Shown piece after piece: positions 863-24,245 of a stretch of DNA of 64,000 nucleotides (the first letter of the stretch is position 1; each line of letters begins with the position of its first letter). Made by a program: the position numbers and the translations under genes. The notes under the pieces were generated by a model. The model searched no databases. It had not been told where the DNA came from and saw nothing but the letters and a program-made list of their open reading frames with translations. The stretch is from Methanomassiliicoccales archaeon (GTDB lineage: Archaea > Thermoplasmatota > Thermoplasmata > Methanomassiliicoccales > UBA472), in the NCBI GenBank assembly GCA_013415865.1, contig CP058896.1:971957-1035956 (forward strand), written 5' to 3'.

Positions 863-3800
863 CGCAAATCCTCCAGCTGAAGGCGCATGGCGACCCCAAG
901 CGATAGCAGCTCATCGAGGAGCAGTTTGAACGCATAGGACGTCTGCACCAGGTGCACGTTCGTGTTGTTTCCGCATACAGGGCAGCGGAGCGCCCCTCTT
1001 CGGTCCAATATCGCTATATGGCCGCAGTTGGGGTTGCCGCATACATATTGATAGGTACCATCGGACTCGTCGAGAAGCCGGTCCTTTATGACCATGGCGG
1101 CACCATGGCCTATCAGGCAGTCACGCTCCATCTCACCGAACCTGAGACCGCCCTGTCTGGAGCGGCCTTCTGTCGGTTGCCTCGTGAGTATCTGCACAGG
1201 CCCGCGGGACCTGACGTGCATCTTCCCTGAGACCATGTGATGGAGCTTCTGGTAATAGATCACGCCCATGAATATGTCGGCCTCTATCTTCCTTCCTGTC
1301 TGGCCATCGTACATGACCTCTCTTCCGGAGTGCATGAAGCCGGCCCTGACCAAGGACTCCCTGATCGCCTCCTCCTTCTCTCCGCTGAACGGGGTGCCAT
1401 CGATGGTCCTCGCCTCCGCACAGCCGACCTTTCCACCGATCATCTCAAGTATGTGCGCCACGGTCATACGGGACGGTATACCGTGCGGGTTGACGACCAG
1501 GTCGGGAGTGAGCCCTTCTGCTGTAAAGGGCATGTCCTCTGCAGGTTGGATCAGACCGACGACCCCTTTCTGCCCATGCCTTGAGGCGAACTTGTCGCCC
1601 AGCTCTGGAATGCGCTCGTCCCTCACCTTCACCTTGACGAGCCTGGAGCCGTTCTCGGACTCGGTCAGCATGACCGAGTCGACCCATCCGGTCTCGCCGC
1701 CGCGGCAGGTGACCGATGTCTCCCTGCGCTTCTGAACGGAAAGGAAGTCACCGACATCCTCCTCAAGGAACCTCGGCGGCGAGGTCTTCCCTATCAGCAC
1801 ATCGCCGGCATTGACCGCTATCTCAGGTGAGATCAGACCGTCGTCAGGGTCAAGGTTGACATATGACTGGTCCTGCCTTGCGCCACGGACGTCCGGCTGG
1901 GGGATCTCGAAATGGTCCTCCTGTCCCCCTGGGTATCTGCGTTCCTCGGCCCTGTATGTTCTCATGAATGTGGACCTGCCGAGGCCGCGCTCGACGCTCG
2001 CCTTGTTGAGGATCAATGCGTCCTCCATGTTGAAACCATGATAGGACAGGACGGCCACGACAAAGTTCTGCCCTGCGGGCCTCTTGTTGAACGCAACGAA
2101 GTCCATCGTCTTCGTCTGGACCAACGGCTTCTGCGGATAATGCATGATGTGCCCACGGGTGTCCGGCCTCATACGGTAGTTGGAGGCGGCCAGGCCCAAC
2201 GATTGCTTCGCCATCCCTGCCCCCATGGTGACACGCGGTGACGAGTTATGCTCTGGGTATGGCACCAGTCCGGAGCAGACCCCGAGTATGCACATCGGAT
2301 CTACCTCCATGTGGGTGTGCTCCTTGGTGATCAAAAGCTTGGATGAGATCATCCCTCCGCAATGCCTGCATTTGAGCTGGGCATCCTTGTCCGCCGTGCC
2401 TGGGTTCATCCAATCAAGGTCCATAGGTGATAATGCACGCCCACAATGGTCACATCTCTCAGGGACCTCATACGGAGATACGGCGATGAACGCGTCCTCT
2501 TCCTCCTCCGCATCGATCCATTCTATGACGCCCTCGCGGACGAGGTCGTTCCAGCGGAGCTTGCCCTCGCGGATCTCCTCAATATGCCTCCTGGTAAGGG
2601 CGATCTTCCCATCATTGACAACGATGAGGCTCCTCCGGAGACGCCCCTCATCGCAGTTGATTATGACCTCGTCCATCTCCTCATCATAACGGACGTTTAT
2701 CTCATGTGAGAGGAGCCCTGACCTGCGCCTCTGGCGCATCTCGTTGATGAGGTACTTTGCCCGGTCATGGACCCCCTTCAGGTCCCCATTTACATAGACC
2801 CGGGTGCCCGCCTTCTGCTGGCCTCTCACCTCTTTTACCCCAAGGTCCTTCAGCAGGTATGTGACGTCCTCCTCACGGAACCCTTCTGAGACGTCGATGA
2901 TAAGCGCGGCATTCTTGACCAGACCGCAGTTCTGCCCCTCGGGGGTCTCGTTGGGGCATAGACGGCCCCACTGGGTGGGATGTAGGTCACGCGCCTCGAA
3001 GTGTGGCTGGCTCCTGGTCAAGGAAGACGTAATACGCCTGAGGTGGGAGAGCGTGGACATGTTCGAGGTCCTGTCCAGCAGCTGGCTCACACCTGCACGA
3101 CCACCGACCCAATTGCCGGTCGCCAGGGCGTGCAGGAGACGGTGTGACAAAAGGTCTGGCCTGATTGCGCTCCCTATCCGAAGGTCCTTCTTCCTTGCAT
3201 AGGACCTCTCCAGCTGGTACTTCAGGTCTTTCATGAGGTTTGTGAAGGCGACGCGGAAGAGGTCCTCCATCAGGTCGCCTGCCAGCTTCAGCCTCTTGTT
3301 GGCATAATGGTCCTTGTCATCCTCGTTCCTCATGTTCAATGAAAGCTCAAGCACGGACCTTGCGATGCGGCCGAGGAATATCGCCTTCTTCATGCGGTCA
3401 TCGGGCGTATCGCCAAGGTGCGGGAGCAATGAGCGGTCGATGATGGACTCGACCTTCTTGACGCGGTATTCCTTTGCCTGCCCGGTAGCGAACTTGCGTT
3501 CCAGGTAGGCGATGGCGTCGTTCGTGGTGAAAATACCGTTGGGGGGGTAGACCTTCTTATCATGGATCTCCTCGATGTTAGCGTAAACGATGTTGCTCAT
3601 CCTCGGATCGGACGCGATGGCCTCGAATATCTCCTGGTCGTTCTCCATGCCTAAAGCCTTCATCAGTGCGACGAGGGGTATCTGGCCAGATGCCGCCGGG
3701 ACGGTGACCATAAGCACCCCATCCCGCTTCTTCTCGACAAGCGTCAGGGCTCGGTGCCCTTCCTTCTGCGAGAACACCTTAGCTACTTCCAGCTTCGTGC

Positions 3801-4458
3801 CATAGCGCTCGTTGAACTCCACCATGACACGGTTAGGCGCGAGGTCCTCGAGGGTGATAAGAACACGCTCCGTACCTCCGATGATGAAATAACCGCCTGG
3901 GTCCATCGGGTCCTCGCCCTTTTTCTGAAGGGTCCTGTTATATTCCTCCTCTGTCAGCTCCCGCTCCTCTTCAAGGTTCTCTTTATAAAGGTTGCACTTT
4001 TTGCTCTTGACCATGATCGGGAGGTCGCCTATGTGGACCGTCTCCGACTCCTTCTCTATCCCATCCTCTATAACCGTGAACTCGAGAAAGATCGGGGCCA
4101 GGTAGTTGAGGTTCCTCAACCTGGCCTCCATCGGGGTCAGCTCATGGACGTAACCATTGGCCTCCCGGGTCTCAGGGAGCTTGACATGGATCGTAGGCTT
4201 GGCGCTCTGGTCGATCGCTCCCGTCTTCTCATCCCTCTTCCTACCGACGCGGATCTCGACGATCCTTCCGTCCGTCTTGTCCTTGTCCAATCTTATGATG
4301 CCCCTGTCAAGGTCCTCAGCGGACACACGAAGGTTGTCAACGATCTTCTGCATCCTGCTGTTAGGATTGTCCATTGTGGACAGGAAGTCATTGAAGCTGG
4401 ATATATGATGGTTGACGATGCTCCTGTCCTTAAAATAGAGTTCGACTAGATCTCGCAA
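859..4458 (-). CDS. rpoB: DNA-directed RNA polymerase subunit B, unsplit (1199 aa)
   Basis: ORF track. Conserved Rpb2/RpoB blocks are present: [74 protein letters not shown], and the C-terminal CxxC..CxxC clamp zinc site. The only usable start is TTG at 4458, because an in-frame TAA lies directly upstream and the conserved N-terminus begins at once. Confidence 0.97.
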
Positions 4459-5835: not shown

Positions 5836-7449
5836 ATGAGGGCGACGGTCATCGACTGCTATATTGACGAACCTGGTTCCCTGGGAGTCCCACCGTTCAT
5901 ACACCCAGGGGTCCGGGCCGTATATGGCGCGCTCGTCGATGCCGGCTGCGACACCTCGTACGTAACTATAGATGACATCAGACAGGGAATGCACCTTGAC
6001 AACGCGGATGTGTACGTGGTCATGGCTGGATGCGCAGTTCCTGGCAGATATATCAGGGCGATGCCTGCCTCGGCCAAAGAGGTGCTCTCATTAGCAAGGA
6101 CTTTGCCAGGCATCAAGGTCCTGGGCGGACCCGCTGCCCTTGAGAAAATGGATTGGTCGAGCGCCTTCGATGTCATAGGAAAAAAGGACGCCGCCTCCGC
6201 TTCCTTCGATCTCGTGAGAAAAGGGTGGGGGACAGACCGTTGGAGGACGGTCTCGGAATGGGAACGGTGGTTACTGAAGGGTGCGGAGTGTGTTATGCAG
6301 CACCCTGACCATCCACAGCCATTGATAGCAGAGATAGAGACGTACAGGGGATGCGTAAGGTACCGAAGCGGAGGATGTTCATTCTGCATCGAGCCACTTA
6401 AGGGAGAGCCTGAGTTCAGGGATGCGGGCAGTATAATAGAGGAGGTCGCTCGCCTGCATGAGCTTGGCGTGCGCAACTTCCGTCTTGGAGCGCAGACCTG
6501 TTTCATATCCTATAAGGCCCATATGGATGGAACGGACAGGCCAAGACCTAACCCCCAGGAGGTCGAGCGCCTTCTTTCGGGGATCTCCTCGGTCAGACCG
6601 GACGTCCTGCACCTTGACAATGCCAACCCGGCGATCATCGCTCAATGGCCAGATGAGGCCAGGATGGTCCTTGAGAGCATAGCTGAGCATTGCACGAGCG
6701 GTAATGTTCTGGCTTTGGGGCTAGAATCGGCCGATCCTGTCGTGAGGGAGGCCAACAACCTGAACGCCTCGGCCGAGGAGACCATGCAGGCCGTGAGGAT
6801 GATCAACGAGGTGGGAGGTGAGCGTGGACCCAACGGGCTCCCCAAGGTCCTCCCAGGCATCAATTTCATAGTTGGTCTGGATGGTGAGCGGAAAGAGTCG
6901 CTCTTGCACAACATGAGGTTCTTGAAGGGAGTTATGTCCGAAGGCCTCCTCCTGCGGAGGATCAACATCAGGCAGGTGATCGGCATCCGCAGACAGTTCA
7001 GACAGAACCTTACCCATGGGGAGTTCCTTAAATTCAAGGAATGGGTCAGGCAGGAGGTCGACCACGTGATGCTCGAAAGGATGCTTCCCAGGGGCACCCT
7101 TCTCAAAGGAATATATACCGAGCTCAAGGAGGGCAAGGTGACGTTCGGTAGGCAGATAGGTACTTATCCCATCCTTGTGGGATTCGAGCATCCTGTGGAG
7201 ATGTCCCGCCTCTATGACGCCAAGGTCACAGGCTGGGGTTTCAGAAGCATCACCGCGGTTGAATGGCCCTTGAGCATCAACAGGTGCCACATATCTGCGA
7301 TCGAGGCCCTTCCGGGCGTAGGGAGGAAGAGGGCCATGAGGGTGTTCAGGGCAAGGCCTTTCAAAGGACCGGAGGACTTTGTTGCAAGCTTCGACGATGT
7401 TGAGCTAGGAAGATACCTGCTGGATTACGTGACCTTCGATCGGTTGTAA
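5836..7449 (+). CDS. Radical SAM protein with B12-binding-like N-domain and C-terminal helix-hairpin-helix
   Basis: ORF track 5821..7449. I prefer the ATG at 5836, which has a GGAGGT 8 nt upstream. There is a cysteine-rich core (ETYRGCVRYRSGGCSFC) and a C-terminal ALPGVGRKRAMRVF HhH-like motif. Confidence 0.7.
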   Translation: MRATVIDCYIDEPGSLGVPPFIHPGVRAVYGALVDAGCDTSYVTIDDIRQGMHLDNADVYVVMAGCAVPGRYIRAMPASAKEVLSLARTLPGIKVLGGPAALEKMDWSSAFDVIGKKDAASASFDLVRKGWGTDRWRTVSEWERWLLKGAECVMQHPDHPQPLIAEIETYRGCVRYRSGGCSFCIEPLKGEPEFRDAGSIIEEVARLHELGVRNFRLGAQTCFISYKAHMDGTDRPRPNPQEVERLLSGISSVRPDVLHLDNANPAIIAQWPDEARMVLESIAEHCTSGNVLALGLESADPVVREANNLNASAEETMQAVRMINEVGGERGPNGLPKVLPGINFIVGLDGERKESLLHNMRFLKGVMSEGLLLRRINIRQVIGIRRQFRQNLTHGEFLKFKEWVRQEVDHVMLERMLPRGTLLKGIYTELKEGKVTFGRQIGTYPILVGFEHPVEMSRLYDAKVTGWGFRSITAVEWPLSINRCHISAIEALPGVGRKRAMRVFRARPFKGPEDFVASFDDVELGRYLLDYVTFDRL

Positions 7450-7486
7450 TGTAAGTTTTTTATCGGCACATAAGGATGGACAGGAC

Positions 7487-8563
7487 ATGGAGACCCAACT
7501 CCTGTCCCGATATCCGTTCTTGAAGGCGGCCTCCGAGCTGGTCAGGTCCAGCAATGTCTCTCTCGATGAGCTATTGACGCACAGGGCGTATGAGGGTCCA
7601 AGGGCCAGGGGAAAACAGCGGGTCATGGACGCGTTGAACGACCTGAAGGTCGGTCTTGTACCTACCTCTTCGGACGAGGGGGCGATATTGCTGGAGGTGC
7701 TCAGCTATCCCGTCGCGAGGGTCCTGGTATCTTGTGTGGCCGATGAGTTCCTCGTAAGAAGATATGCCTTGGCCGAGGCGAAGACCATGCACGAACGCCT
7801 GGAGACGGAGGATCTTGATATCGTCGTTGAGGTGGCCGAGGACCTGGGCGTCACTGCGCACAGGGATGGCGATGTGCTCAGCATGCATTTCTGTGATTTC
7901 TTGCGGTACACCTCTGGCCTCAGGGGGAAAGAATGGAAGCTGGTCAACCATGAGCTCAGGAAAGGGTTCGTGGTCCTCCCAAAGAAGAAGTTCGCAAGGG
8001 TCCTTGAGCAGGCCCTCGCTGAGAAGATCGGGATGGAGCTTCCATTGCCCGTGTCTGATGATATAATGGAGGCGATGGCCAAGGACGTCGCTGAGATCAC
8101 GGCCGTCGTGTCACAGATGAGGGAGAGGATGAAGGAGCAGGGGTTCGGCGAAGTGAGCATCACCAAGTTCCCTCCCTGCATGAAAAAGCTGACGGTAATG
8201 GCCGAGAAGGGGGAGAACATGCCCCATGCCGGGCGATTCGCCATCACCACTTTCCTCAGCGCCCTGGGAATGTCGAATGATGACATCGTGAAGACCTTCT
8301 TCTCTTCTCCTGATTTCGATAATTCCATGACGGTCTACCAGGTCAGGCACATCACGGGGGATGGGATGGGTAAAAGATATTCCTGTCCAGAGTGCGCGAC
8401 CATGCGAACGAACGGCCTGTGCATCGATATGGACGATCTATGCCGGAGCGGTAAGGTCAGACATCCATTGGGTTATTACAGGATAAGGTCCATGGAACAA
8501 AAAAGGAGGCCCCGTCCTGAAGAGAGCGAGCAGATAGCTGCTCAGAGACCGTCAGGGCATTGA
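7487..8563 (+). CDS. priL: DNA primase large (regulatory) subunit PriL
   Basis: ORF track (358 aa). The C-terminal Fe-S cysteines (FPPCM ... YSCPECATMRTNGLC) and overall layout match archaeal PriL. Confidence 0.8.
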   Translation: METQLLSRYPFLKAASELVRSSNVSLDELLTHRAYEGPRARGKQRVMDALNDLKVGLVPTSSDEGAILLEVLSYPVARVLVSCVADEFLVRRYALAEAKTMHERLETEDLDIVVEVAEDLGVTAHRDGDVLSMHFCDFLRYTSGLRGKEWKLVNHELRKGFVVLPKKKFARVLEQALAEKIGMELPLPVSDDIMEAMAKDVAEITAVVSQMRERMKEQGFGEVSITKFPPCMKKLTVMAEKGENMPHAGRFAITTFLSALGMSNDDIVKTFFSSPDFDNSMTVYQVRHITGDGMGKRYSCPECATMRTNGLCIDMDDLCRSGKVRHPLGYYRIRSMEQKRRPRPEESEQIAAQRPSGH

Positions 8564-11565: not shown

Positions 11566-12594
11566 CTAACGGCCATATTTCTTGAGCAATACTGAAAGGT
11601 CCCTTGTCATCTCAGGGCCGCTCGCCGGTTCATCAGGGATGTCGGTTATCCCCGTGATGACGGCTATCAGGCGGATCGTCGATTCGTTATCGTCCTCTAT
11701 CCTCACACCAAATTTAATGTTCGCGTCTGGATCAAGATGTCCGGTTATGCCTTGGAAGACCTTGTAGGCCTTCCTGAGGGTCAGCGTGCTACCTCCTGAC
11801 AGATGGACCAGCGCTCCCGTCCCTCCTTTGATGTCAATGTCAAGGAGGGGATTGTTGATCGCATCATTGACGACCCCATCAGGGTCAGCGTTCTCGGCAT
11901 ATAATATGGTAGATACCCCACCATGGGAAATGACCGTCTTCAGGTCGGCGAAATCGAGATTGATGAGCGATGGTTTGGTAAGCGCGTCCACTATGCCCCT
12001 AATAAGTTCGGCGATGAGCTGGTCCATGACCCCTAATGCCTGATTGAAGGGGATGTTCCCACATATTTCAATGAGCCTGTTATTGTCCAACACCAGTAAC
12101 GTGTCGGATGATTCGCTCAGACGCCGCAGGCCCTTGAGAGCGTTGCTCTTCCTTACCCCCCCTTCGATATGGAAGGGCAAAGTGGCGATCGATATCACGA
12201 CCGCCCCGTTACGCTTGGCCGTCTCAGCGACTATCGGTGCAGCGCCGGTACCGGTCCCCCCGCCCATCCCGACGATGATGAAGCAGAGGTCTACATCCCT
12301 TAGGGTCTGGTCGATGATCCCGCCTGCATTCATTGCGCATGTCTCTCCTACATCGACCCTTCCACCCGCGCCACGCCCCTTTGTGTACTCAGCACCTATG
12401 AGAAGGCGGTTCTTCGCGCAAGTTGCCTTAAGGCTGATGGCGTCTGTGTTAATTGCGAGCGTGTCGGCCCCTTCGATCCCTATCTTGTTGAGCCTGTGTA
12501 TGCTGTTACAACCCGCCCCACCGCACCCCACTACGAGTATCTTTAACCGATGGATATCGTAATCTGATGCTTCGCCTCCGTAGCTGGACCCCAT
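11566..12594 (-). CDS. ftsZ: Divergent FtsZ-family tubulin-like GTPase (third paralog; FtsZ2-like by its RHH-gene synteny)
   Basis: ORF track (342 aa). Contains GCGGAGCN, NTDA, the tubulin signature [12 protein letters not shown] and the T7-loop NLDFADL. It lacks the long C-terminal tail of the other two copies. It lies 28 nt downstream of the RHH gene on the same strand. Confidence 0.85.
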   Translation of the reverse strand: MGSSYGGEASDYDIHRLKILVVGCGGAGCNSIHRLNKIGIEGADTLAINTDAISLKATCAKNRLLIGAEYTKGRGAGGRVDVGETCAMNAGGIIDQTLRDVDLCFIIVGMGGGTGTGAAPIVAETAKRNGAVVISIATLPFHIEGGVRKSNALKGLRRLSESSDTLLVLDNNRLIEICGNIPFNQALGVMDQLIAELIRGIVDALTKPSLINLDFADLKTVISHGGVSTILYAENADPDGVVNDAINNPLLDIDIKGGTGALVHLSGGSTLTLRKAYKVFQGITGHLDPDANIKFGVRIEDDNESTIRLIAVITGITDIPDEPASGPEMTRDLSVLLKKYGR

Positions 12595-12622
12595 CCCTGT
12601 TCCTCCGGAGGGCTTGAGCGAG

Positions 12623-12964
12623 TCATTTCATCTCGTTCACGGCCCTTTCGAGACGCATGCGAACGTATTCCCGGACCGCGTTCCTGATCGCGTCATCGAT
12701 CGATACCGAATCACCTTCTTTTACCAAGGCCTCCAGCTCAACAAGTTTACCTTTTGGGAGCTCCACCGTGACCCTTTCGATGTATTCTGGCGTAAAATGG
12801 GTCTCGATGAAGTTGTCGATGGCTGCTCGTATGGCGTCCGATATTGTCGGATATTTGCCATCATTGACGAGCCCCTGAAGGGCCTGCAGCTTGTCAGCAG
12901 GTAAGCGGATCGTGATTCTCTCGGTATCGCTCATGGCACAACTCTGGAACGATGTGTCTGACAT
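12623..12964 (-). CDS. Ribbon-helix-helix (CopG/Arc/MetJ) DNA-binding protein with two RHH repeats in one chain
   Basis: ORF track (113 aa). Repeat 1 is ERITIRLPADKLQALQGLVNDGKYPTISDAIRAAIDNFIE. Repeat 2 is ERVTVELPKGKLVELEALVKEGDSVSIDDAIRNAVREYVR. They are about 40% identical over 40 aa by eye. An alternative start is the second MSDT at 12934. Confidence 0.8.
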   Translation of the reverse strand: MSDTSFQSCAMSDTERITIRLPADKLQALQGLVNDGKYPTISDAIRAAIDNFIETHFTPEYIERVTVELPKGKLVELEALVKEGDSVSIDDAIRNAVREYVRMRLERAVNEMK

Positions 12965-12984
12965 ATATAGTTATTTTGTCAGAC
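12956..12984. promoter_or_regulatory. 7-bp inverted repeat GTCTGAC-N15-GTCAGAC spanning the RHH start codon and 5' leader (candidate autoregulatory operator)
   Basis: GTCTGAC at 12956..12962 and GTCAGAC at 12978..12984, read directly. A TATA-like tttatatattt (reverse strand) lies at about 13000..13010. Confidence 0.35.
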
Positions 12985-13260
12985 AAATGCAAGATTATTT
13001 TGTAAATATATAAACATTACAACATAGGGATTAGAGATGCACCAGATTGTAGTAGCGATGGATTTTTATTCATCTGCCGAGACCGATGATCGTTCATAAT
13101 GGTTCCTCATCTGGCGGATCGACCAGCATATACGTTCTGAAGAGGTCTGGCCAGGATGGCGCTGTATTAGATGTCGCGGCGAGGCGCTCAGCCTTCATAT
13201 CGATGGGTACGTGCCTCCTTTCCTTCATGCCTGAACGTGTCTGCCCATGTGGCAAAATCC

Positions 13261-13280
13261 TTTATATAAGGTATTTAAAT
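13261..13280 (+). promoter_or_regulatory. TATA-box region of the tbp promoter
   Basis: tttatataaggtatttaaat lies 25-45 nt upstream of the tbp ATG (13305). GGTGA Shine-Dalgarno at 13293..13297. Confidence 0.45.
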
Positions 13281-13304
13281 ACCACGCAAAAAGGTGACCT
13301 TGTA

Positions 13305-13853
13305 ATGGCCAAAATCAAGATAGAGAATGTTGTGGCATCGACCTCCCTCGGGGAGGAACTAGACCTTCAGTCCATCGCGTTGGCCCTCGATGATGCTGAG
13401 TACGAGCCCGAGCAGTTCCCTGGCCTCATATACAGATTGAAGGACCCAAAGACCGCGACCCTTCTATTCCGGAGCGGTAAGGTCGTATGTACTGGGGCAA
13501 AGTCCCTCGAGCACGTAAAGGTCGCGATCAATAAGGTCGCCAAGCAGATAGAGAAAGCCGGGATCAAGATAAAGATGGAGCCAAAGATCGAGGTCCAGAA
13601 CATCGTTGCATCTTCAGACCTTGGACAGGAGATCAACCTGAACGCGATCGCGATATCCCTCGGCCTTGAGCGGGTCGAATACGAGCCCGAGCAGTTCCCT
13701 GGCCTTGTCTATCGGATCGATGAGCCGAAAGTGGTGGTCCTATTGTTCGGTTCCGGGAAACTTGTCTGCACCGGCGCCAGGAAGCCCCAGGACGTGGAGG
13801 CGGCGGTCAACAAGATCACCGAGGAACTAAAAGCAGCTGGTCTGCTAAGGTGA
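13305..13853 (+). CDS. tbp: TATA-box binding protein
   Basis: ORF track 13086..13853, trimmed to ATG 13305 (MAKIKIENVVAST...). This gives the canonical 182-aa two-repeat TBP (EQFPGLIYRL / EQFPGLVYRI repeats). Promoter and SD elements lie inside the track's upstream extension. Confidence 0.93.
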   Translation: MAKIKIENVVASTSLGEELDLQSIALALDDAEYEPEQFPGLIYRLKDPKTATLLFRSGKVVCTGAKSLEHVKVAINKVAKQIEKAGIKIKMEPKIEVQNIVASSDLGQEINLNAIAISLGLERVEYEPEQFPGLVYRIDEPKVVVLLFGSGKLVCTGARKPQDVEAAVNKITEELKAAGLLR

Positions 13854-14704
13854 AATCTTTTCCATACATCCTCGACAACCACATTCATCTTCAGCCGAAA
13901 GGAAGGGGGGTCGAGGCGATCAAAGAATTCTCAAAGGCAGGAGGCACGCACGCCATCCTGAGCCATATGCCTTATGATGAGGTCTTCATAAAGACCTCCG
14001 CCGATTTCATGAGGTCCTATCAGATAACTCTGGAACAAATGGACCTTTGCAATAGAGAGACCCCTGTGAAGATGTTCTGTACCGTCGGGCCCTATCCTGT
14101 GCTTCTTATCGAGCTTGCCAAGGATCACGGTCTGGTCAAGGCCAAGGAGATGATGATGGAGGGCATGGACCAGGCAGCCCACCTTGTCGAAGAAGGGAGG
14201 GCGGTCGCGATAGGAGAGGTAGGAAGACCTCATTTCCCGGTCGGCGCGGACATGATGGAGGCCTCCAATGAGATCCTGGCCTATGGCATGAGACTTTGTA
14301 AAGAGCTTGGATGCGCCATCGTCGTCCATGCCGAGAGCGCTACGCCGTCATCGATGGGGGACCTTGGAAGGATCGCTGATGCAGTCGGTCTTCCCAGGGA
14401 TAAGGTAGTAAAACATTTTTGTGCACCTTTAGTGCTTCCAGAGGAATCGAGGGGGTTGATGCCCTCGGTGCTGGCCAGCAAGAATGCTGTCCAGGAGGCC
14501 CTTTCCAAGGGTGACCGGTTCCTTTTGGAGACCGATTACATGGACGACCCGGCCAGGCCTGGAGCTGTCCTAGGCATCGCGACCGTCCCAAAAAGGATAA
14601 AGGGACTTTTGCTCTCGGGGGCGGAAGGGGGCCGGTTAGAAGATGCCTTATGGAAGATCAATAAGGATAATCCTGAGAGGACCTATGGCATCGACATCAG
14701 GTGA
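13850..14704 (+). CDS. TatD-related metal-dependent hydrolase
   Basis: ORF track (284 aa). Amidohydrolase-type H-x-H (NHIHLQP) at the N-terminus and a later HAE motif. The start overlaps the tbp stop (GTGA). Confidence 0.65.
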   Translation: MKSFPYILDNHIHLQPKGRGVEAIKEFSKAGGTHAILSHMPYDEVFIKTSADFMRSYQITLEQMDLCNRETPVKMFCTVGPYPVLLIELAKDHGLVKAKEMMMEGMDQAAHLVEEGRAVAIGEVGRPHFPVGADMMEASNEILAYGMRLCKELGCAIVVHAESATPSSMGDLGRIADAVGLPRDKVVKHFCAPLVLPEESRGLMPSVLASKNAVQEALSKGDRFLLETDYMDDPARPGAVLGIATVPKRIKGLLLSGAEGGRLEDALWKINKDNPERTYGIDIR

Positions 14705-14707
14705 TGA

Positions 14708-14980
14708 TCAATGGATCTCGAAGGTCGAGAACTCATTCTTTGGGGGCAGCCAGATGATGTCTACATGGTCAACTCTGGCATTAGGGTGGTCCTCAGACAA
14801 TAACCGTATGACCTCTTCGATCGCTTCGCTCTCCCCCTCGAACACAGCCTCCACAGACCCGTCTGGCATGTTCTTGACCCATCCTGTGACGCCCAGCCGC
14901 TTTGAGAACCTCCTGGTGAACTCCCGGAAATGCACACCCTGAACCCTTCCCCTGAACCTCACCTCGGCCCTCGAAGTCAT
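14708..14980 (-). CDS. acyP: Acylphosphatase
   Basis: ORF track (90 aa). Signature VRFRGRVQGVHFREFT ... GWVKNMPDGSVEAVFEG. Confidence 0.85.
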   Translation of the reverse strand: MTSRAEVRFRGRVQGVHFREFTRRFSKRLGVTGWVKNMPDGSVEAVFEGESEAIEEVIRLLSEDHPNARVDHVDIIWLPPKNEFSTFEIH

Positions 14981-15278
14981 TCGATCCCATTTTTAAGAAG
15001 GGACTGCATCAGACTTTAATATTCTCATACTTGATGGGGGCCATTGCCGTTGCTGCGAGCACGACCTCTACATGGTGAAAATAATGGGCGTTGGCGGTCG
15101 TCAAATCGACCGACCATTTACCAACATGGCCATAAGAAAGCCTATGGATCGATATGGGCCCAGACTGGCCTGGGGTTTACAGTTTCATATCGGCGTCAAA
15201 TATGTTTATCAAAGGTTTTTTATTAATTCAAATGGATGAGGGTTCAATTTGTGTATTTCACACTAGGATGGGATTGGG

Positions 15279-16409
15279 ATGATGAAATCGCTCGTAGAGG
15301 AAGCTTTGGCTAAAGATAATGATGTGCCGATGAGGCCCGAACCCAGGATGCAGATGGCCCCACCGCCGATGATGGACAACACCGATGCAGAGCTGATCGA
15401 GCTCTTGCAGAAACTAAGGACGAACATCAAGATAATCGGTGTGGGGGGCGGCGGGTCCAACACTGTCACCAGGATCTCTGAGGAGAACATCGCCGGGGCT
15501 GAGACCTACGCGGCGAACACTGACGCACAGCATCTTCTGGCATCCAAGGCACAGCATAAGATATTGCTCGGAAGGAGGAGCACCCGAGGTCTGGGTGCAG
15601 GTGCCATCCCGCAGATGGGCGAGGCTGCCGCCAAAGAGGCCGATGTAGAGCTGAAGAAGGCCTTGAGCGACGCAAATATAGTATTCGTCACTGCAGGAAT
15701 GGGAGGGGGGACCGGTACCGGCGCTGCTGCGGTCGTGGCGGAGACCGCAAAGGAACTAGGGGCCCTGACGATCGCGGTCGTGACGACGCCGTTCAAGGGA
15801 GAGGGTAAGCTTCGTTTTGAGAATGCTGAGTGGGGACTACAGCGCCTCAGGAATGCTGCGGACACGGTCATCGTCATCCCGAACGATAAGCTCCTCCAGC
15901 TATATCCTAAACTTTCTCTCAATGCTGCCTTCAAGGTTGCCGATGACGTCCTTTACAGGGCCATCAAAGGCATCACCGAGCTCATAACCAAGCCTGGCCT
16001 GGTCAACCTGGACTTCAATGACCTAAAGACCATTATGAAGGGCGCAGGGGTCGCCATGATCGGGATGGGAGAGAGCGACGGGGACCCTGCGGACAGGGCC
16101 ATGGAGGCCATAGAGATGGCTTTGAACTCCCCACTGCTCGAGGTCGACATATCGACCGCCACCGGTGCGCTCGTGAACGTCATGGGTGGGCCGGATATGA
16201 CCATAGCAGACGCCCAGAAGGTCGCCGAAGAGGTACATAAGCGCATAAGTCCCAATGCCAGGATAATATGGGGAGCGGGCGTGGACCCATCTTTGGAACA
16301 CAAGATCAGGGTCATGGTGGTGATGTCGGGTGTCAGATCGTCCCAGATCCTAGGAAGGTCAGAGGAAGCGCATAAGATCAAAGGGGCAGACCTCGACTTC
16401 ATCAAGTGA
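15279..16409 (+). CDS. ftsZ: Cell division GTPase FtsZ (copy a)
   Basis: ORF track (376 aa). Contains [28 protein letters not shown] and NLDFNDL. About 70% aa identity to copy b by eye. Confidence 0.93.
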
Positions 16410-16436
16410 CTCTTGAGGGTTCAACAGACGGTCAAA

Positions 16437-16480
16437 AAGGCGGCCGGTCAGGCCGCCTTGTGAATTCTTTATCTTCTTCC
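16437..16480. terminator. Bidirectional terminator-like hairpin between convergent ftsZ-a and the XRE gene
   Basis: A 9-bp stem AAGGCGGCC/GGCCGCCTT (16437..16459, loop GGTCA) is followed by a T-rich tract on the + strand (ttgtgaattctttatcttctt). It is preceded by A5 on the + strand, which reads as T5 on the - strand. Confidence 0.5.
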
Positions 16481-16539
16481 CTAAACAGAACAGGGCATGA
16501 TGCAGATGGACATCTGGTCTCGATCGCTCCATCTGACGG

Positions 16540-16731
16540 TCAGTCAGATGTGAACAATTCCTCGACCCTGACCTTGAACAGCCTTGCTATCCTAATGGCC
16601 AATTTCAAAGAAGGATCGGAGCGTTCATTCTCGATCGCGATTATCCGTTGCCTTGTGACCCCCACCTTTTTCGCCAGCTCTTCCTGGGTTATGTTCGTCA
16701 TCGCCCTGTACATTCTTATCTTATTTTTCAT
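16540..16731 (-). CDS. Small XRE/Cro-C1-type helix-turn-helix transcriptional regulator (63 aa)
   Basis: ORF track. The HTH TQEELAKKVGVTRQRIIAIENER is typical of the short XRE family. It is transcribed divergently from ftsZ-b across the AT-rich region. Confidence 0.85.
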   Translation of the reverse strand: MKNKIRMYRAMTNITQEELAKKVGVTRQRIIAIENERSDPSLKLAIRIARLFKVRVEELFTSD

Positions 16732-16766
16732 GTCAGCCCAGAAGGAGATGATTGTGATATTAAATT

Positions 16767-16798
16767 AACATTTTGTTAATTATTATATACAAAATGTT
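16767..16798. promoter_or_regulatory. Perfect 10-bp inverted repeat AACATTTTGT-N12-ACAAAATGTT around a TATA-like core (candidate operator/promoter of the XRE gene)
   Basis: Read directly: arms at 16767..16776 and 16789..16798, with spacer TAATTATTATAT. On the reverse strand the spacer reads as a TATA box about 50 nt upstream of the XRE ATG. Confidence 0.5.
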
Positions 16799-16811
16799 TA
16801 TCACAATAAAC

Positions 16812-16837
16812 ATAATGTTAATTATTATATACATTAT
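16812..16837. promoter_or_regulatory. Second inverted repeat ATAATGT-N12-ACATTAT with the identical TAATTATTATAT core
   Basis: Arms at 16812..16818 and 16831..16837. The 18-nt TGTTAATTATTATATACA is perfectly repeated at 16774..16791 and 16816..16833, a 42-bp period. Confidence 0.45.
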
Positions 16838-17024
16838 TTATTGATTATTAATTATAATATAGCATATTAAATAAATCAATGCCAGTATTTATAATATATA
16901 TTATAATAATATTATTTAACTGCAAACATGACGCTTGGGACCGAAACTCTTTTTTATATTCGAAACGGTAACCACCATAAGGAGTGATACCTTAGGGTAT
17001 ATCCTTTGTCAAGGGGAGTCTCAT

Positions 17025-18131
17025 ATGAAATCATTCATCACAGATGCGATGTCAAAGGCGGGGCCTTCTAGCGCCCCAGAGATGATGAGCAGCTATAGGA
17101 GCCCGACCGCGGACGATGAGGAGCTCGAGCGCATACTCATGAGCCTAAAGACCAATGTGAAGATCGTTGGATGTGGTGGCGGGGGATGCAACACCATAAA
17201 CAGGCTTTATGAAGCGAACATCAGGGACGCGGAGCTGTTCGCGCTCAATACCGATGCACAACATCTGCTGATAGTCCGCGCCAACAAGAAGATACTGTTG
17301 GGCCGGAGGAGCACTCGTGGACTTGGTGCTGGCGCATTGCCTCAGGTAGGCGAGGAGGCCGCCCGTGAAGCTGAGGAGGACATACGCAAGGCGCTAACGG
17401 GGGCGGACATCGTCTTTGTGACGGCCGGTCTGGGAGGAGGTACTGGGACAGGGTCTGCCCCTTATGTTGCCCAGATTGCAAAGGACATGGGTGCATTGAC
17501 CGTTGCAATAGTCACATCGCCGTTCAAAGCGGAAGGTGCGATAAGAACTGAGAACTTCGAGTGGGGCCTCGAAAGGTTACGCGGGATCGCTGATACGGTC
17601 ATCGTTGTCCCGAACGAGAAGCTCCTAGAGCTGTGCCCCAGGTATTCCCTCAATGCGGCGTTCAAGGTCGCTGATGAGGTCCTGATGAGGGCCATCAAGG
17701 GCATCACCGAGCTCATAACCAAGCCAGGACTGGTAAACCTGGACTTCAATGACCTTAGGACGATCATGAAGGGCGCAGGGGTCGCCATGATCGGGATGGG
17801 CGAGGGCGAGGATGACGACAAGGTCGAACAGGCGGTCAGTGAAGCGATCAACTCCCCGCTCATCGACGTCGACATCACAGGAGCTAGCGGCGCCCTCATA
17901 AATGTCACCGGCGGCGAGGACATGACGGTCAGCGAGGCTGAGAAGGTCGCCGAGATAATTCAGTCCAAGATCAACCCGAACGCCAGGATCATCTGGGGGG
18001 CGTCCATCGATCCATCCCTTGAGAACAAGATGAGGGTGATGGTGGTCGTCACCGGTGTCAAATCCAAATATGTCCTTGGACATAAAGAAGGACAGGCCCA
18101 GAAGGTGATGGGGGTAGACTTCATTAAGTGA
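17025..18131 (+). CDS. ftsZ: Cell division GTPase FtsZ (copy b, in the conserved ftsZ-secE-spt5-rpl11 synteny)
   Basis: ORF track 16935..18131, trimmed to ATG 17025 ([11 protein letters not shown]...) with a GGGGAG SD 8 nt upstream. Contains [27 protein letters not shown] and NLDFNDL. Confidence 0.93.
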
Positions 18132-18197: not shown

Positions 18198-18413
18198 ATG
18201 GACATAATCGAGAAATCCCAGGAGGTCCAAGACGGGATCGAAGAGAGGGTCAGGAACCTCGGGAAGGGCAAGTATGGGCGCGTCCTGAAGATGGCGCGCA
18301 GGCCCACCAACGACGAGTATTCCAAGATCGTCCTGATAACTGGCATAGGCATAGTCCTGATTGGATTGCTAGGTTTCGCCATATATTGGATATGGAAGTC
18401 CGTCTCGCCTTGA
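18198..18413 (+). CDS. secE: Preprotein translocase subunit SecE / Sec61-gamma
   Basis: ORF track (71 aa). It has a single C-terminal TM (IVLITGIGIVLIGLLGFAIYWIW) and the conserved position before spt5. Confidence 0.85.
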   Translation: MDIIEKSQEVQDGIEERVRNLGKGKYGRVLKMARRPTNDEYSKIVLITGIGIVLIGLLGFAIYWIWKSVSP

Positions 18414-18414
18414 C

Positions 18415-19335
18415 ATGGCGGAAGGATGTTACGCTCACAAACGAGGTTTGATCATGAATCAAGACGCGGACCAGCAGGCAGCCCCAATATCGACGCGCGG
18501 TGGAAGCGTGGTCATGAGCGGAGAGAGCGGAAGGCTCAACGTCACGGCCGGAAGCGTCGCTAACTGGAACATACAGATCAGAACAGAGGACGCTGCCAAG
18601 AAGAACGTTGTGGTGCGCGTGAACATCAACTACGAACCAGGCGCGCCCGAATGGGATGTAAAGCTCTCCGATAGGATGGACGTGCTTTACGACTCGGCCT
18701 CACTTGGTGAACCGGTAGTGAAGCTTCAGCTTGACAACCGCCCGAAGGACCTCAAGCTGAGCGCCGAGGCGCCACGCGGTGCCAGGATAGATGATGTCGT
18801 AAAGATATCATTGGAGGCCTTCCCTGAAGGGGACGCGTCATCGATTAGCAGGATGGAATTCTCGGCCTATGCTGTCCCTTCCGTCCTGATCCTAAAGACC
18901 TCGATAGGTCATGAGAGAAATGTTGCAGATGGCGTTGCAAGCAAGGCCAAGGCCGCGAAAGACCTTGGTAACAGCCTTGGCATATTCGCCATCTTGGCCC
19001 CTGAGAAGCTGGACGGGTATGTGATCGTTGAAGGGATGAACACAGACCTTGTTCGCGAGACGGTCCGAGGGGTACGGAAATCAAAGGGACTGGTAGAGGG
19101 AGAGACCAAGTTCAGCGAGATAGAGCACTTCCTGACGCCGAAGCCGCTGGTTTCTGGTATAATGGAGGGTGATGTCGTCGAGCTGGTGGCCGGACCGTTC
19201 AAGGGAGAGAAGGCCAGGGTCCAGAAGATCGATGAGAGTAAAGAGGAGATCACGGTGGAGCTCTTTGAGGCGCTGGTACCGATCCCAGTGACCGTCCGCG
19301 GAGACCATGTGAGGGTCCTCGAGAAGGAGAAGTGA
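18415..19335 (+). CDS. spt5: Transcription elongation factor Spt5 (NusG family) with an in-frame N-terminal extension of about 146 aa
   Basis: ORF track (306 aa). Residues from about 147 onward ([25 protein letters not shown] ... [22 protein letters not shown]...) form a normal NGN+KOW Spt5. The upstream 438 nt are open in the same frame starting 1 nt after the secE stop. The canonical-length alternative start is ATG 18853. Confidence 0.85.
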
Positions 19336-19339
19336 GAAA

Positions 19340-19819
19340 ATGCCAGAAACGATCGAGGTGCTGGTGGATGGCGGCAAGGCCACACCAGGTCCGCCGCTCG
19401 GGCCCGCATTGGGACCGACGGGGATCAACGTTGTACAAGTAGTGCAGAAGATCAACGAGAAGACAAAGGACTTCGCCGGCATGAAGGTCCCGGTCAAGGT
19501 CATCATCGACCCTAAGAACAAGTCGTTCGAGATCAAGGTCGGAACGCCACCGACCTCCGCCCTCCTCTTCAAGGAGCTTGGCATCGAGAAGGGCTCAGGG
19601 GCTCCCAAGGTGACCAAGGCAGGGAACATAACGATAGAGCAGGCCATCAAGGTCGCCGAGATGAAGAAGGACAGTCTCATGGGTAAGGACCTGAAGAACC
19701 GCGTCCTGGAGGTAATCGGCACTGCTGTCTCCTGCGGCATCACCATCGAGGGCAAGGACCCCAAGGAGATGCAGAAGGAGATAAAGGATGGAAAGTGGGA
19801 TGCCAAGTTGGTCGGATAA
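19340..19819 (+). CDS. rpl11: 50S ribosomal protein L11
   Basis: ORF track (159 aa). Contains [21 protein letters not shown]. Confidence 0.95.
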
Positions 19820-22119: not shown

Positions 22120-23079
22120 ATGTCCCTCAAACTCGGGGAGATCTATCGCTTGGCCATTGAAAAGGGGATGGAGAACGACGTCCGCACCAAGGAGGAGATC
22201 GCTTCTGACCTCGCACGGGTCCAGAAGAGATATGAAAAGATGGACGTCAAGGAAAAGGACCGTTTTGACACGGACGCGCTATGGAACCCCTATGCGGACT
22301 GCCGGGTCCTCTTTGGGGACCTTGAGAAGGAGGTCAGGACCGTCCTTTGGGGCATCGACATCGCGACCCCGGAGGTCCTTCTGGCCGACCGCCTGAGGGA
22401 GAAGGGAAGAAGGATAGACGCTCTGATAAGCCATCATCCCATCGGAAGGGCAAGGGCCAGGTTGCATGAGGCGATGCCGGTGCTCGAATACCTTATGCGC
22501 TCTGCTGGGGTCCCGATCACTACGGCCGAGGACATCCTCGGGCCGAGGATGAGGGAGATCCGCAATCTTACGGCCGTTGACAATCATATGCAGACGATAG
22601 ATGCGGCTAGACTGTTGGACATACCATTGATGTGCCTGCACTCTTGCACCGACAATCTTGTGCAGAGGTTCATAGAGAAGCTGGTGGAAGAAAGAAGGCC
22701 AGAAAGGATCGAGGATATCCTCGAGCTTCTGCTGGAGCTTCCAGAGTTCGATCGCATGGCACGGAACGGGAACGGCCCTGAGGTCTATGTCGGGGACAGA
22801 GGAAGGCGTGCTGGGAAGATCATGGTCAAGATGTGCGGCGGGACCTCTGGCCCTAAGGAGATGTTCGAAGAGCTCTCGGACGCTGGCGTCGGAACCTACA
22901 TGTGCATGCACCTCCCTGAGAACCAGCTCGAGGAGGCAAAGAAACATCATATCAATATCATCATTACAGGTCATGAGGCCTCGGACTCGCTAGGAGTCAA
23001 TCTTCTGGCGGACGAGGTCGAGGCCAGAGGGGTGGAGGTCGTCCCGTTCTCAGGGTTGATCAGGGTGAAGAGGAATTGA
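22120..23079 (+). CDS. NIF3-family (dinuclear metal centre) protein
   Basis: ORF track (319 aa). NIF3-like blocks are present (WGIDIATPEVLLA, ALISHHPIG, GHEASDSLG). Its stop overlaps the orc1 TTG start. Confidence 0.6.
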   Translation: MSLKLGEIYRLAIEKGMENDVRTKEEIASDLARVQKRYEKMDVKEKDRFDTDALWNPYADCRVLFGDLEKEVRTVLWGIDIATPEVLLADRLREKGRRIDALISHHPIGRARARLHEAMPVLEYLMRSAGVPITTAEDILGPRMREIRNLTAVDNHMQTIDAARLLDIPLMCLHSCTDNLVQRFIEKLVEERRPERIEDILELLLELPEFDRMARNGNGPEVYVGDRGRRAGKIMVKMCGGTSGPKEMFEELSDAGVGTYMCMHLPENQLEEAKKHHINIIITGHEASDSLGVNLLADEVEARGVEVVPFSGLIRVKRN

Positions 23080-24245
23080 GCTCAAAACTTAAGCGGCATG
23101 GTAGGGTCTTCAAGGACCAGTCGAAGCTTTCCTTCGATTATGTACCTGAAAGGCTGGTCCATCGTGAAAAGCAATTGGAGATATTGAGCTCCATCTTCAG
23201 ACCGGTCCTGGAGGGACAGATGTCCCAGACCGCCATGCTCGTGGGCAGCGTCGGGACGGGCAAGACGGCGACGACGAAAAGGTTCTGCCTTGATGCGCAG
23301 AGGGCATCTGAGGGGTCGGGGCGCGCCATCGATTTCATCATCGTGAACTGCAGACAAAGGAGCTCTGAGAATGCCGTCCTCCAGAGGTTGATCGCTCATT
23401 TCGACGACCGCTACCCCGACAGGGGCTTCTCGACCGCTGAGATGCTCAGGGCGATCGCGAAACACATCGAAAAGAGAAAGATACACCTGATAGTCGTCCT
23501 GGACGAGGCGGACGTCCTTGTGAGAAGGGGTGCCTCGGACCTCATCTACCAATTGTCGCGGTTCGATGAGGAGAAGATCTGCCCAAGGCCATCGCTCTCC
23601 CTGATCCTGATCTCCCAAAAATATGTGCTTGACATGCTGGACCAGGCGGCGGTCTCGACTTTCCGCCGAGCGAACGCCATCCGCTTTGAGAGATACAGCT
23701 CTCAGGAGCTGAAGGACATTGTGAGCTCCAGGGCGGAACTGGCCCTGTTCCCAGGTTCGATCGATGATGGCCCCGTCCAACTTATCGCCGATATCGCCTC
23801 AGAGTTCGGTGATGCAAGGTTCGCCATCGAGCTCCTGGAAAAAGCTGGGATGATTGCCGAGGAGGGGGGGCATGATTCCATATTGGCCGAGCACGTACGT
23901 GCAGCGAAGGCGCTCACATATTCCGTGGTCACCGAATCGAAAATAGAAGACCTGGACAGACAAAGAAAGCTGGTCCTTTTGGCCATATGCCGGTCCATGA
24001 AGGACCAGGCCTATGTGACGACCGGGGAGGTCGAGAGGGCATATAAGGTAGTAGCTGAGGAACATGGGGAGAAGGCAAGGGCCCACACGCAGTTCTGGGA
24101 ATATGTACAGGACCTTTCCAACAATGGGCTGATCAGCACGAAGGTCACGGGAGACCCGTCGGGAGGTAGGACGACATACATCTCATTGCCAGATATTCCT
24201 GCGAAGGTCCTCGCCGAAAAATTGGAGTCCGTGCTGCGGCCGTGA
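23076..24245 (+). CDS. orc1: Orc1/Cdc6 replication initiator
   Basis: ORF track (389 aa). Contains LSFDYVPERLVHREKQLEIL, Walker A GSVGTGKT, Walker B VVLDEAD and a C-terminal winged helix. The TTG start overlaps the NIF3 stop (TTGA). Confidence 0.92.
   Translation: MSSKLKRHGRVFKDQSKLSFDYVPERLVHREKQLEILSSIFRPVLEGQMSQTAMLVGSVGTGKTATTKRFCLDAQRASEGSGRAIDFIIVNCRQRSSENAVLQRLIAHFDDRYPDRGFSTAEMLRAIAKHIEKRKIHLIVVLDEADVLVRRGASDLIYQLSRFDEEKICPRPSLSLILISQKYVLDMLDQAAVSTFRRANAIRFERYSSQELKDIVSSRAELALFPGSIDDGPVQLIADIASEFGDARFAIELLEKAGMIAEEGGHDSILAEHVRAAKALTYSVVTESKIEDLDRQRKLVLLAICRSMKDQAYVTTGEVERAYKVVAEEHGEKARAHTQFWEYVQDLSNNGLISTKVTGDPSGGRTTYISLPDIPAKVLAEKLESVLRP

Follow-up and report, generated by a model that had tools for sequence, protein, structure and literature searches.

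Do three ftsZ genes packed into 6.6 kb of archaeal DNA, two of them next to a gene for a small DNA-binding protein, make up a specialised module of division control, or are they an ordinary division-gene neighbourhood? The question is raised by a stretch of 64,000 nucleotides (nt) from a Methanomassiliicoccales archaeon (contig CP058896.1, positions 971,957 to 1,035,956), hereafter the window, in which one ftsZ gene follows a ribbon-helix-helix (RHH) gene and two others are parted by a gene for an XRE-type helix-turn-helix (HTH) protein. An earlier reading of the bare sequence, the original prediction, saw here a division "supercluster" with dedicated-looking regulators. Our analysis indicates that the locus is probably an ordinary, vertically inherited Methanomassiliicoccales division-gene neighbourhood with one clade-specific addition, the XRE module. 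The features at issue are the following.

11566..12594, minus strand: ftsZ2, predicted FtsZ2-type FtsZ of 342 amino acids (aa) with Tubulin and FtsZ_C domains and a TIGR00065 match; the RHH gene lies 28 nt upstream
12623..12934, minus strand: CdrS-like tandem RHH regulator, 103 aa, with an RHH_1 match; probably co-transcribed with ftsZ2
12956..13014, minus strand: predicted RHH-ftsZ2 promoter, with a TATA box at 13006-13014 and GTCNGAC at 12978-12984 and 12956-12962
15279..16409, plus strand: ftsZ1a, 376 aa, TIGR00065 score 423 bits; upstream copy of the tandem FtsZ1 pair
16439..16457, no strand: GC-rich hairpin, a probable bidirectional terminator between the convergent ftsZ1a and XRE genes
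16540..16731, minus strand: XRE/Cro-C1-type HTH protein, 63 aa, HTH_3 match with E 5e-16; clade-specific insertion
16760..16925, no strand: AT-rich block, 88% A+T, with candidate operators and a poorly conserved spacer
16764..16843, no strand: predicted operator array of four sites at a spacing of 21 base pairs (bp), flanking the XRE TATA-like elements
16940..16960, plus strand: predicted ftsZ1b core promoter, ACCGAAA resembling a B recognition element (BRE), then TATA TTTTTTATAT
17025..18131, plus strand: ftsZ1b, 368 aa, TIGR00065 score 430 bits; in the canonical FtsZ1 position

We surveyed 80 loci, one genome per species, with FtsZ1b as the query (its best matches, at no more than 97% identity, are metagenome-assembled genomes of Methanomassiliicoccaceae and Methanomassiliicoccales), and mapped twelve window proteins onto them by tblastn. 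The results show that the order SpoU-ftsZ2-RHH-(TBP)-TatD-AcyP-ftsZ1a-ftsZ1b-secE-nusG-rpl11 is kept family-wide, with wider gaps in distant Thermoplasmata, and that secE-nusG-rpl11 stand behind ftsZ1b in the window and almost all the loci. Since the gene order is kept across relatives, the "supercluster" is inherited synteny and no special feature; the three-FtsZ neighbourhood is common to Methanomassiliicoccales and is not a peculiarity of one genome.

The three FtsZ genes themselves are as the original prediction had them, full-length and carrying GGGTGTG and NLDF(A/N)DL, and the open reading frames (ORFs), domains and model scores agree on this. All three ORFs hold the Tubulin and FtsZ_C domains (Pfam), their translations show the GMGGGTGTG or GLGGGTGTG nucleotide-binding signature and an NLDFADL or NLDFNDL T7 loop with NxDxxD intact, and each exceeds the cut-off of 295 bits of the FtsZ equivalog model TIGR00065, which ftsZ2 matches at 316 bits. 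FtsZ1a and FtsZ1b are 62% identical over their full length, a lower figure than the roughly 70% first estimated, and the divergent FtsZ (ftsZ2) is 41% identical to FtsZ1b. The start of ftsZ1b, MKS, is conserved in all relatives aligned. Of the 65 Thermoplasmata loci whose sequence extends far enough upstream, 54 have a tandem FtsZ1-type pair ahead of secE. A neighbour-joining tree was built without bootstrap from 157 FtsZ sequences of the surveyed loci. In it the upstream FtsZ1 copies stood, among the sequences listed, mostly apart from the secE-adjacent ones; the secE-linked FtsZ of Halobacteriota and Methanoregula lay near the base of both FtsZ1 groups, and the RHH-linked divergent copies formed a clade of their own outside every FtsZ1-type copy. 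Synteny and trees thus show ftsZ1a and ftsZ1b to have arisen by an old tandem duplication of FtsZ1, with ftsZ1b in the canonical ftsZ1-secE-nusG-rpl11 position. In one relative, L002, ftsZ1a is split into three ORFs, through assembly frameshifts or as a pseudogene.

The divergent copy, which had been expected to fall within the FtsZ family, does so: it lies above the TIGR00065 cut-off, and its 49 PDB matches at E<=1e-20 include FtsZ only and no CetZ, so that a CetZ identity was rejected. CetZ was likewise absent among the strong PDB matches of FtsZ1b, for which the M. jannaschii 'FtsZ homolog 1' was the closest (381 bits, compared with 284 bits for the divergent copy). We therefore name the three genes ftsZ2, ftsZ1a and ftsZ1b, the probable FtsZ2 being called from synteny and by exclusion. 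Published surveys find that genes of the translation machinery typically accompany ftsZ1 and a parD/RHH_1 gene accompanies ftsZ2, and that FtsZ1 or FtsZ2 often come in two or more copies (PMC8178401, PMC9871819).

The RHH gene ends 28 nt before the ftsZ2 ATG on the same strand, as originally predicted, but its length needed correction, because alignment of the upstream region and the relatives' genes, called at 103 aa, place the start at the second methionine, at 12934, giving 103 and not 113 aa. Its orthologues measure 103–106 aa across Methanomassiliicoccales and Thermoplasmatota, and the RHH-ftsZ2 adjacency was found in every related locus whose sequence reaches that far. The protein consists of two RHH repeats, its halves being 40% identical, and it matches the CdrS model NF058555 in two stretches (E 6e-18, 64.6 bits, below the 100-bit equivalog cut-off). 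The locus of cdrS and ftsZ2 is described as strongly conserved in archaea, and its synteny as kept across Euryarchaeota (PMC7439475, PMC8406309). Together, the CdrS-model match and the RHH-ftsZ2 synteny identify the pair as the known cdrS-ftsZ2 arrangement in a fused, tandem-RHH form, and the parallel with cdrS-ftsZ2 drawn by the original prediction is upheld by that match and by the published synteny (PMC7439475, PMC8178401, PMC9871819).

Furthermore, we observed two GTCNGAC boxes in the RHH promoter of all related loci that have the RHH gene (25 of 25), compared with 0.2% of random 120-nt windows; their spacing is 22 bp in 23 of these loci and 11 bp in two (L011 and L013). About 30 nt upstream of the pair lies a TATA box of the TTTATATA type, aligned across 21 loci and matching a strict pattern in 14 of the 25. 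Placing the transcription start at the usual archaeal distance from this TATA box would put the distal GTCNGAC box over the predicted start and the proximal box in the leader, a placement typical of repression, from which we infer negative autoregulation of RHH-ftsZ2. The GTCNGAC pair is thus the likely autoregulatory operator of the tandem-RHH protein. Each chain would act as a single-chain RHH "dimer" on one GTCNGAC palindrome, and by repressing its own operon the protein would set the FtsZ2 level through negative feedback. The longer RHH motif, TGTCNGACR, was found at none of the other promoters of the 64-kb window, where its total count is not above chance; outside the RHH promoter it occurs only inside genes, at 38393 and 40933. 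A perfect TGTCCGACA palindrome with the RHH-box core lies at 38393-38401, inside an ORF at 38163-39158 (minus strand), and is probably a chance match, as the overall motif count is not above expectation.

Could the small XRE protein do for ftsZ1b what the RHH protein is proposed to do for ftsZ2? As predicted, the 63-aa XRE gene stands alone between the two close FtsZ genes, convergent with ftsZ1a and divergent from ftsZ1b, and its match to HTH_3 (PF01381) reaches 58.9 bits against a gathering cut-off of 23. Only 14 loci have XRE placed between ftsZ1a and ftsZ1b, namely the window, L001-L010, L012, L017 and L021; two further contigs carry the same ftsZ1a-XRE-ftsZ1b arrangement. Neither XRE nor the AT-rich block occurs in the sister group (L011, L013-L016, L018-L020, L022-L024) or in any other Thermoplasmata examined. 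The XRE loci are monophyletic in a tree of FtsZ1b, NusG and L11 (200 of 200 neighbour-joining bootstraps), and FtsZ1b identity goes down to 76% within this sub-clade. The insertion comprises the XRE gene and about 150–190 nt of AT-rich DNA upstream of it, set between the ftsZ1a terminator and the ftsZ1b promoter, and would have entered once, in the ancestor of one Methanomassiliicoccaceae sub-clade. The original prediction had reckoned that absence of the gene and the block from relatives would speak against it; that is half the case, as both are missing in the sister clade and stably kept in a monophyletic sub-clade. The XRE reading frame is intact in all 14 loci, and the median of its pairwise ratios of non-synonymous to synonymous substitution rates (dN/dS) is 0.13 across them, compared with 0.18 for SecE; the gene is kept under purifying selection.

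Other genes have entered the gap between ftsZ1a and XRE in some relatives. L003 has a 257-aa ORF there on the ftsZ strand (6690-7463), L004 and L005 show an extra gap of similar size, and L002 has a 165-aa ORF on the opposite strand (6848-7345). Such unrelated genes suggest that the gap is a permissive site, an insertion hot spot.

The AT-rich block (16760-16925) is, at a scale of 300 nt, the most AT-rich stretch of the 64 kb, and its composition of 88% A+T and its palindromes were confirmed. In the relatives, the XRE-ftsZ1b intergenic region has a GC content of 0.28–0.40, compared with 0.55–0.61 for their loci; the G+C of the XRE coding sequence is about 0.5, near the genome value. Aligned across relatives, the intergenic DNA consists of conserved islands within otherwise divergent AT-rich sequence. 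The palindromes proved to be three exact sites, AACATTTTGTT, TACAAAATGTT and AACATAATGTT (16767-16777, 16788-16798 and 16809-16819), and a degenerate fourth, TACATTATTTA (16830-16840), all 21 bp apart. The pattern WACAWWWTGTW occurs three times in the window, each time in this array, compared with 0.12 expected. With one mismatch allowed, three to five sites of the consensus TTAC(A/T)TTTTGTAA (TTAC-N5-GTAA) lie in a 21-bp register in 14 of 14 XRE loci, and the intergenic region of the XRE-bearing loci holds relaxed matches at about 45 times the density of their remaining sequence. In these respects the palindromes behave as genuine operators would. No other exact operator match was found in the 64 kb; relaxed matches elsewhere are GC-rich in the middle, those of the window falling within coding sequence, and the few in relatives upstream of ftsZ1a are not conserved. 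A small ORF in the block (29 codons, start ATGCCAG) was rejected as a gene, being unconserved in relatives by eye.

The sites lie 29–80 nt from the XRE start codon. The TATA-like elements of XRE on the minus strand, at 16757-16766 and 16778-16788, are the only ones upstream of the gene and fall between or beside the sites; the ftsZ1b TATA is about 110 bp (at least 100 bp) beyond the last of them. As the operators sit at the XRE TATA and far from that of ftsZ1b, autoregulation of XRE is the best supported reading of the predicted sites, and it is well supported; control of ftsZ1b is possible. XRE dimers would bind the three to five TTAC-N5-GTAA operators cooperatively, every two helical turns around the XRE TATA, and bound XRE would repress its own transcription. 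Any effect on ftsZ1b would be secondary, arising from the shared divergent intergenic region.

The promoter of ftsZ1b appears to be older than its neighbour. In XRE-less loci the ftsZ1a-ftsZ1b spacer measures 124–263 nt, and in the closest XRE-less relatives it is made up of a GC-rich hairpin with T-run and, after these, CACCGAAA-NN-TTTTAA. This BRE/TATA sequence, about 85 nt before the ftsZ1b ATG, is kept in loci with and without XRE, as is a CCAG(A) motif (16882-16885 in the window) some 55–65 nt upstream of it, which could be the site of some upstream ftsZ1b regulator. The predicted ftsZ1b core promoter is therefore ancestral and predates the XRE insertion. The hairpin at 16439-16457 (RNA fold -19.7 kcal/mol, z -4.0) is flanked by A5 and T-rich runs; a simple consensus terminator scan did not call it, although its fold is strong. 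A hairpin with a T-run also lies 3' of ftsZ1a in several XRE-less relatives. ftsZ1a and ftsZ1b would each have a promoter of their own.

Where did the XRE gene come from? A database search gave 1,192 XRE homologues, with a sharp drop in identity after the first 27 or so (75% or more), and the ftsZ-linked XREs fall into a single clade when the top 120 are placed in a tree. The four nearest outgroups whose context was examined (P0028, P0029, P0037 and P0041; 63–68% identity) are all the second gene of a DUF2178-XRE operon. The gene would thus derive from a widespread family that normally stands behind a DUF2178 membrane-protein gene, a partner that is absent here: upstream of XRE there is no ORF, only the AT-rich intergenic region. 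A similar ACATAATGT site upstream of one DUF2178-XRE operon fits TTAC-N5-GTAA as the probable cognate site of the family. No XRE paralogue was found in the 64-kb window. Two more distant Thermoplasmata, L049 (2742-2921) and L056 (780-968), have a different XRE paralogue with 43% identity, which sits near TatD some 4 kb upstream of ftsZ1a and beside no ftsZ. We found nothing relevant in the literature on DUF2178 or on an XRE gene beside an archaeal ftsZ, in keeping with the remark of the original prediction that the XRE/FtsZ pairing was not recognised as described.

Against the reading of the locus as inherited synteny with an autoregulated XRE, the strongest rival takes XRE to be a dedicated, lineage-specific regulator of ftsZ1b that allows separate control of the FtsZ1 paralogues, in a module analogous to cdrS-ftsZ2. 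We consider this unlikely, although several observations speak for it. XRE-type repressors of division genes have a precedent in DicA of E. coli (the NCBIfam DicA match of our protein is only E 0.0057), XRE is under purifying selection, and none of its operators turned up elsewhere in the 64 kb or the related loci, so that any regulon would be local. On the other hand, the operators lie near the XRE ATG, with 100 bp or more between them and the ftsZ1b TATA downstream, the nearest relatives of XRE regulate or accompany an unrelated membrane-protein gene, and the same spot has also taken up other genes (L002, L003-L005). The BRE/TATA and CCAG(A) of ftsZ1b are equally conserved without XRE; an unchanged promoter in XRE-less relatives means that ftsZ1b expression needs no XRE. 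Of the proposal that two of the three FtsZ genes have a dedicated-looking regulator, the part on the CdrS-like RHH protein is supported, and the part on XRE, whose operator position argues for autoregulation, is not; the XRE/FtsZ adjacency is lineage-specific, as had been proposed for a division control module, and dedicated control of ftsZ1b is unlikely.

Several observations pull away from our preferred reading, and the first three of them favour the dedicated regulator. XRE is fixed in its divergent position beside ftsZ1b throughout the sub-clade, and the XRE-ftsZ1b intergenic region is about 300 nt long in nine of the 14 XRE loci (range 269–349) while its middle diverges, both of which could reflect functional coupling. 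In one subgroup (L004, L005, L007 and L010) a weak operator-like TTCACATnnCGTCAT lies just downstream of the ftsZ1b TATA, at the core promoter; it is absent in the window and in other lineages. In addition, the TATA boxes and transcription starts are predictions from sequence only, all trees are neighbour-joining only, and the FtsZ2 call comes from synteny and exclusion. The AlphaFold2 model of the tandem-RHH protein has low confidence (mean predicted local distance difference test score 62, predicted TM score 0.37), is too poor for a fold search and leaves the proposed single-chain "dimer" fold unsupported.

A narrower form of the coupling idea holds that a captured XRE repressor was wired into the divergent control region of ftsZ1b and tunes FtsZ1b apart from FtsZ1a; we regard this as rather improbable. 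The tuning would come about through operator occupancy, by spreading, by looping or by blocking an upstream promoter in the AT-rich block, a route that we hold to be just as doubtful.

Far less plausible is the view that XRE and its AT-rich block are what is left of a decaying mobile element, provirus or toxin-antitoxin module, XRE being an orphan antitoxin or repressor without host function. It would account for the strong AT-richness of the block, the weak NCBIfam similarity of XRE to phage repressors and HipB/HigA antitoxins, the absence of the insertion from sister lineages and the other genes inserted at the spot in some relatives, but decay is at odds with a dN/dS of about 0.13, a frame intact throughout the XRE loci, an operator array conserved across lineages and a coding G+C near that of the genome, and no toxin, integrase or repeat boundary adjoins the gene. 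A viral origin of XRE was rejected, as the viral collection gave only two distant matches (36–45% identity). A type II toxin-antitoxin assignment (HipB/HigA-type) was rejected as well; XRE has no small ORF partner beside it, and its NCBIfam antitoxin matches are far below their cut-offs. A replication origin in the AT-rich block, with DNA unwinding there and an initiator binding the repeats, can be dismissed despite the block's being the most AT-rich 300 nt of the window, its phased repeats and the Orc1/Cdc6 gene at 23076-24245, since the block is missing in the sister clade and in other Thermoplasmata of equal gene order, whereas origins are conserved, always accompanies XRE, lies 6 kb from orc1 and not next to it, has repeats that are short 14-bp palindromes typical of HTH dimers, and shows no match by eye to the known core of the origin recognition box.

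The remaining genes of the neighbourhood are as follows.

13306..13853, plus strand: TBP, 182 aa (PF00352, E 1.5e-65); syntenic in relatives
13850-14704, plus strand: TatD-family hydrolase (Pfam match); synteny conserved; a bystander
14708-14980, minus strand: acylphosphatase (Pfam match); synteny conserved; a bystander
18198-18413, plus strand: secE (Pfam match)
18415-19335, plus strand: nusG/spt5 (Pfam match)
19340-19819, plus strand: rpl11 (L11 Pfam match on the relatives' orthologue and 95% tblastn identity to that orthologue)

TBP does lie amid the cluster, as had been pointed out; its true start is 13306 and not 13086 (the relatives' gene is called at 182 aa), and nothing ties it functionally to the cluster, so that it is a bystander, a conserved neighbour. 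NusG/Spt5 is 306 aa long and its NGN domain begins only at residue 160; the N-terminal extension of about 150 aa has no Pfam match, and tblastn aligns it across the relatives in Thermoplasmata (276 aa as called in L081). The division genes have those for Orc1/Cdc6 (23076-24245), the primase large subunit (7487-8563) and RNA polymerase subunit B (859-4458) as neighbours a few kb away. The window is rich in information-processing genes, and a replication origin is possibly nearby. An Rfam search of 11–19 kb at permissive thresholds found no RNA family.

Most of this cluster is already-described archaeal synteny, namely cdrS-ftsZ2, ftsZ1 with secE, nusG and ribosomal genes, and multiple FtsZ copies, and the findings overturn no current view. 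What is new is modest: a tandem FtsZ1 duplication common to most Thermoplasmata examined; a fused, tandem-RHH relative of CdrS with an invariant pair of promoter palindromes; and a sub-clade-specific orphan XRE, apparently autoregulated, between the FtsZ1 paralogues. Archaeal division control outside the haloarchaea is poorly understood, and a third FtsZ in most Thermoplasmata makes the Haloferax-based "two-FtsZ" model incomplete for this class. The GTCNGAC pair offers a ready candidate site for biochemistry on CdrS-type regulation in relatives of methanogens. Sister lineages that differ only by XRE and its operators between the FtsZ1 genes are a natural experiment on whether an inserted gene rewires division-gene expression; were XRE indeed wired to ftsZ1b, archaea would here have evolved a new division checkpoint, directed at one of the two FtsZ1 paralogues.

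How does the locus compare with known systems? The XRE protein is closest to the DUF2178-associated XREs of uncharacterised PF09946 + PF01381 operons, with which it shares 56–68% identity, equal length and the signature MKNKIR...TQEELA...SRQTI.AIE...DPSL, and, in one such operon, the similar upstream site described above; it differs from them in standing alone, in an orthologous clade of its own. Lambda OR1-3, SinR and DicA exemplify autoregulated XRE repressors and the phage-type Cro/CI operator arrays. Our predicted array resembles the latter in having several short palindromic operators on one helix face, over the repressor's own promoter in a divergent intergenic region, but it lies in an archaeal BRE/TATA context, outside any prophage and lacking a partner gene that is obviously controlled.

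Like the haloarchaeal cdrS-ftsZ2 locus, the window has a small RHH/CopG-type gene immediately upstream of an FtsZ2-type gene and probably co-transcribed with it (Darnell et al. 2020, PMC7439475; Liao et al. 2021, PMC8406309). Whereas haloarchaeal CdrS has a single RHH domain (the model spans 61 positions), the protein here fuses two RHH repeats into 103 aa; its gene and ftsZ2 are 28 nt apart here as against 3 nt there, and the haloarchaeal CdrL has no counterpart here. The two conserved GTCNGAC promoter boxes, which suggest autoregulation, are a further difference, no such description having been found for CdrS. Another comparison is with the F-plasmid protein TraY, in which one chain likewise carries two RHH repeats in tandem, expected to form one intramolecular RHH DNA-binding unit; the two proteins show no detected sequence relationship and belong to different biology, and the fold of ours is so far represented by a low-confidence model. 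Finally, ftsZ1b just upstream of secE-nusG-rpl11-rpl1-rpl10 reproduces the canonical archaeal ftsZ1 neighbourhood (Pende et al. 2021, PMC8178401; Santana-Molina et al. 2023, PMC9871819), from which the locus departs in two ways: a second paralogue, ftsZ1a, stands in tandem, as it does in most of the Thermoplasmata loci, and in one sub-clade an XRE gene parts the two FtsZ1 copies.

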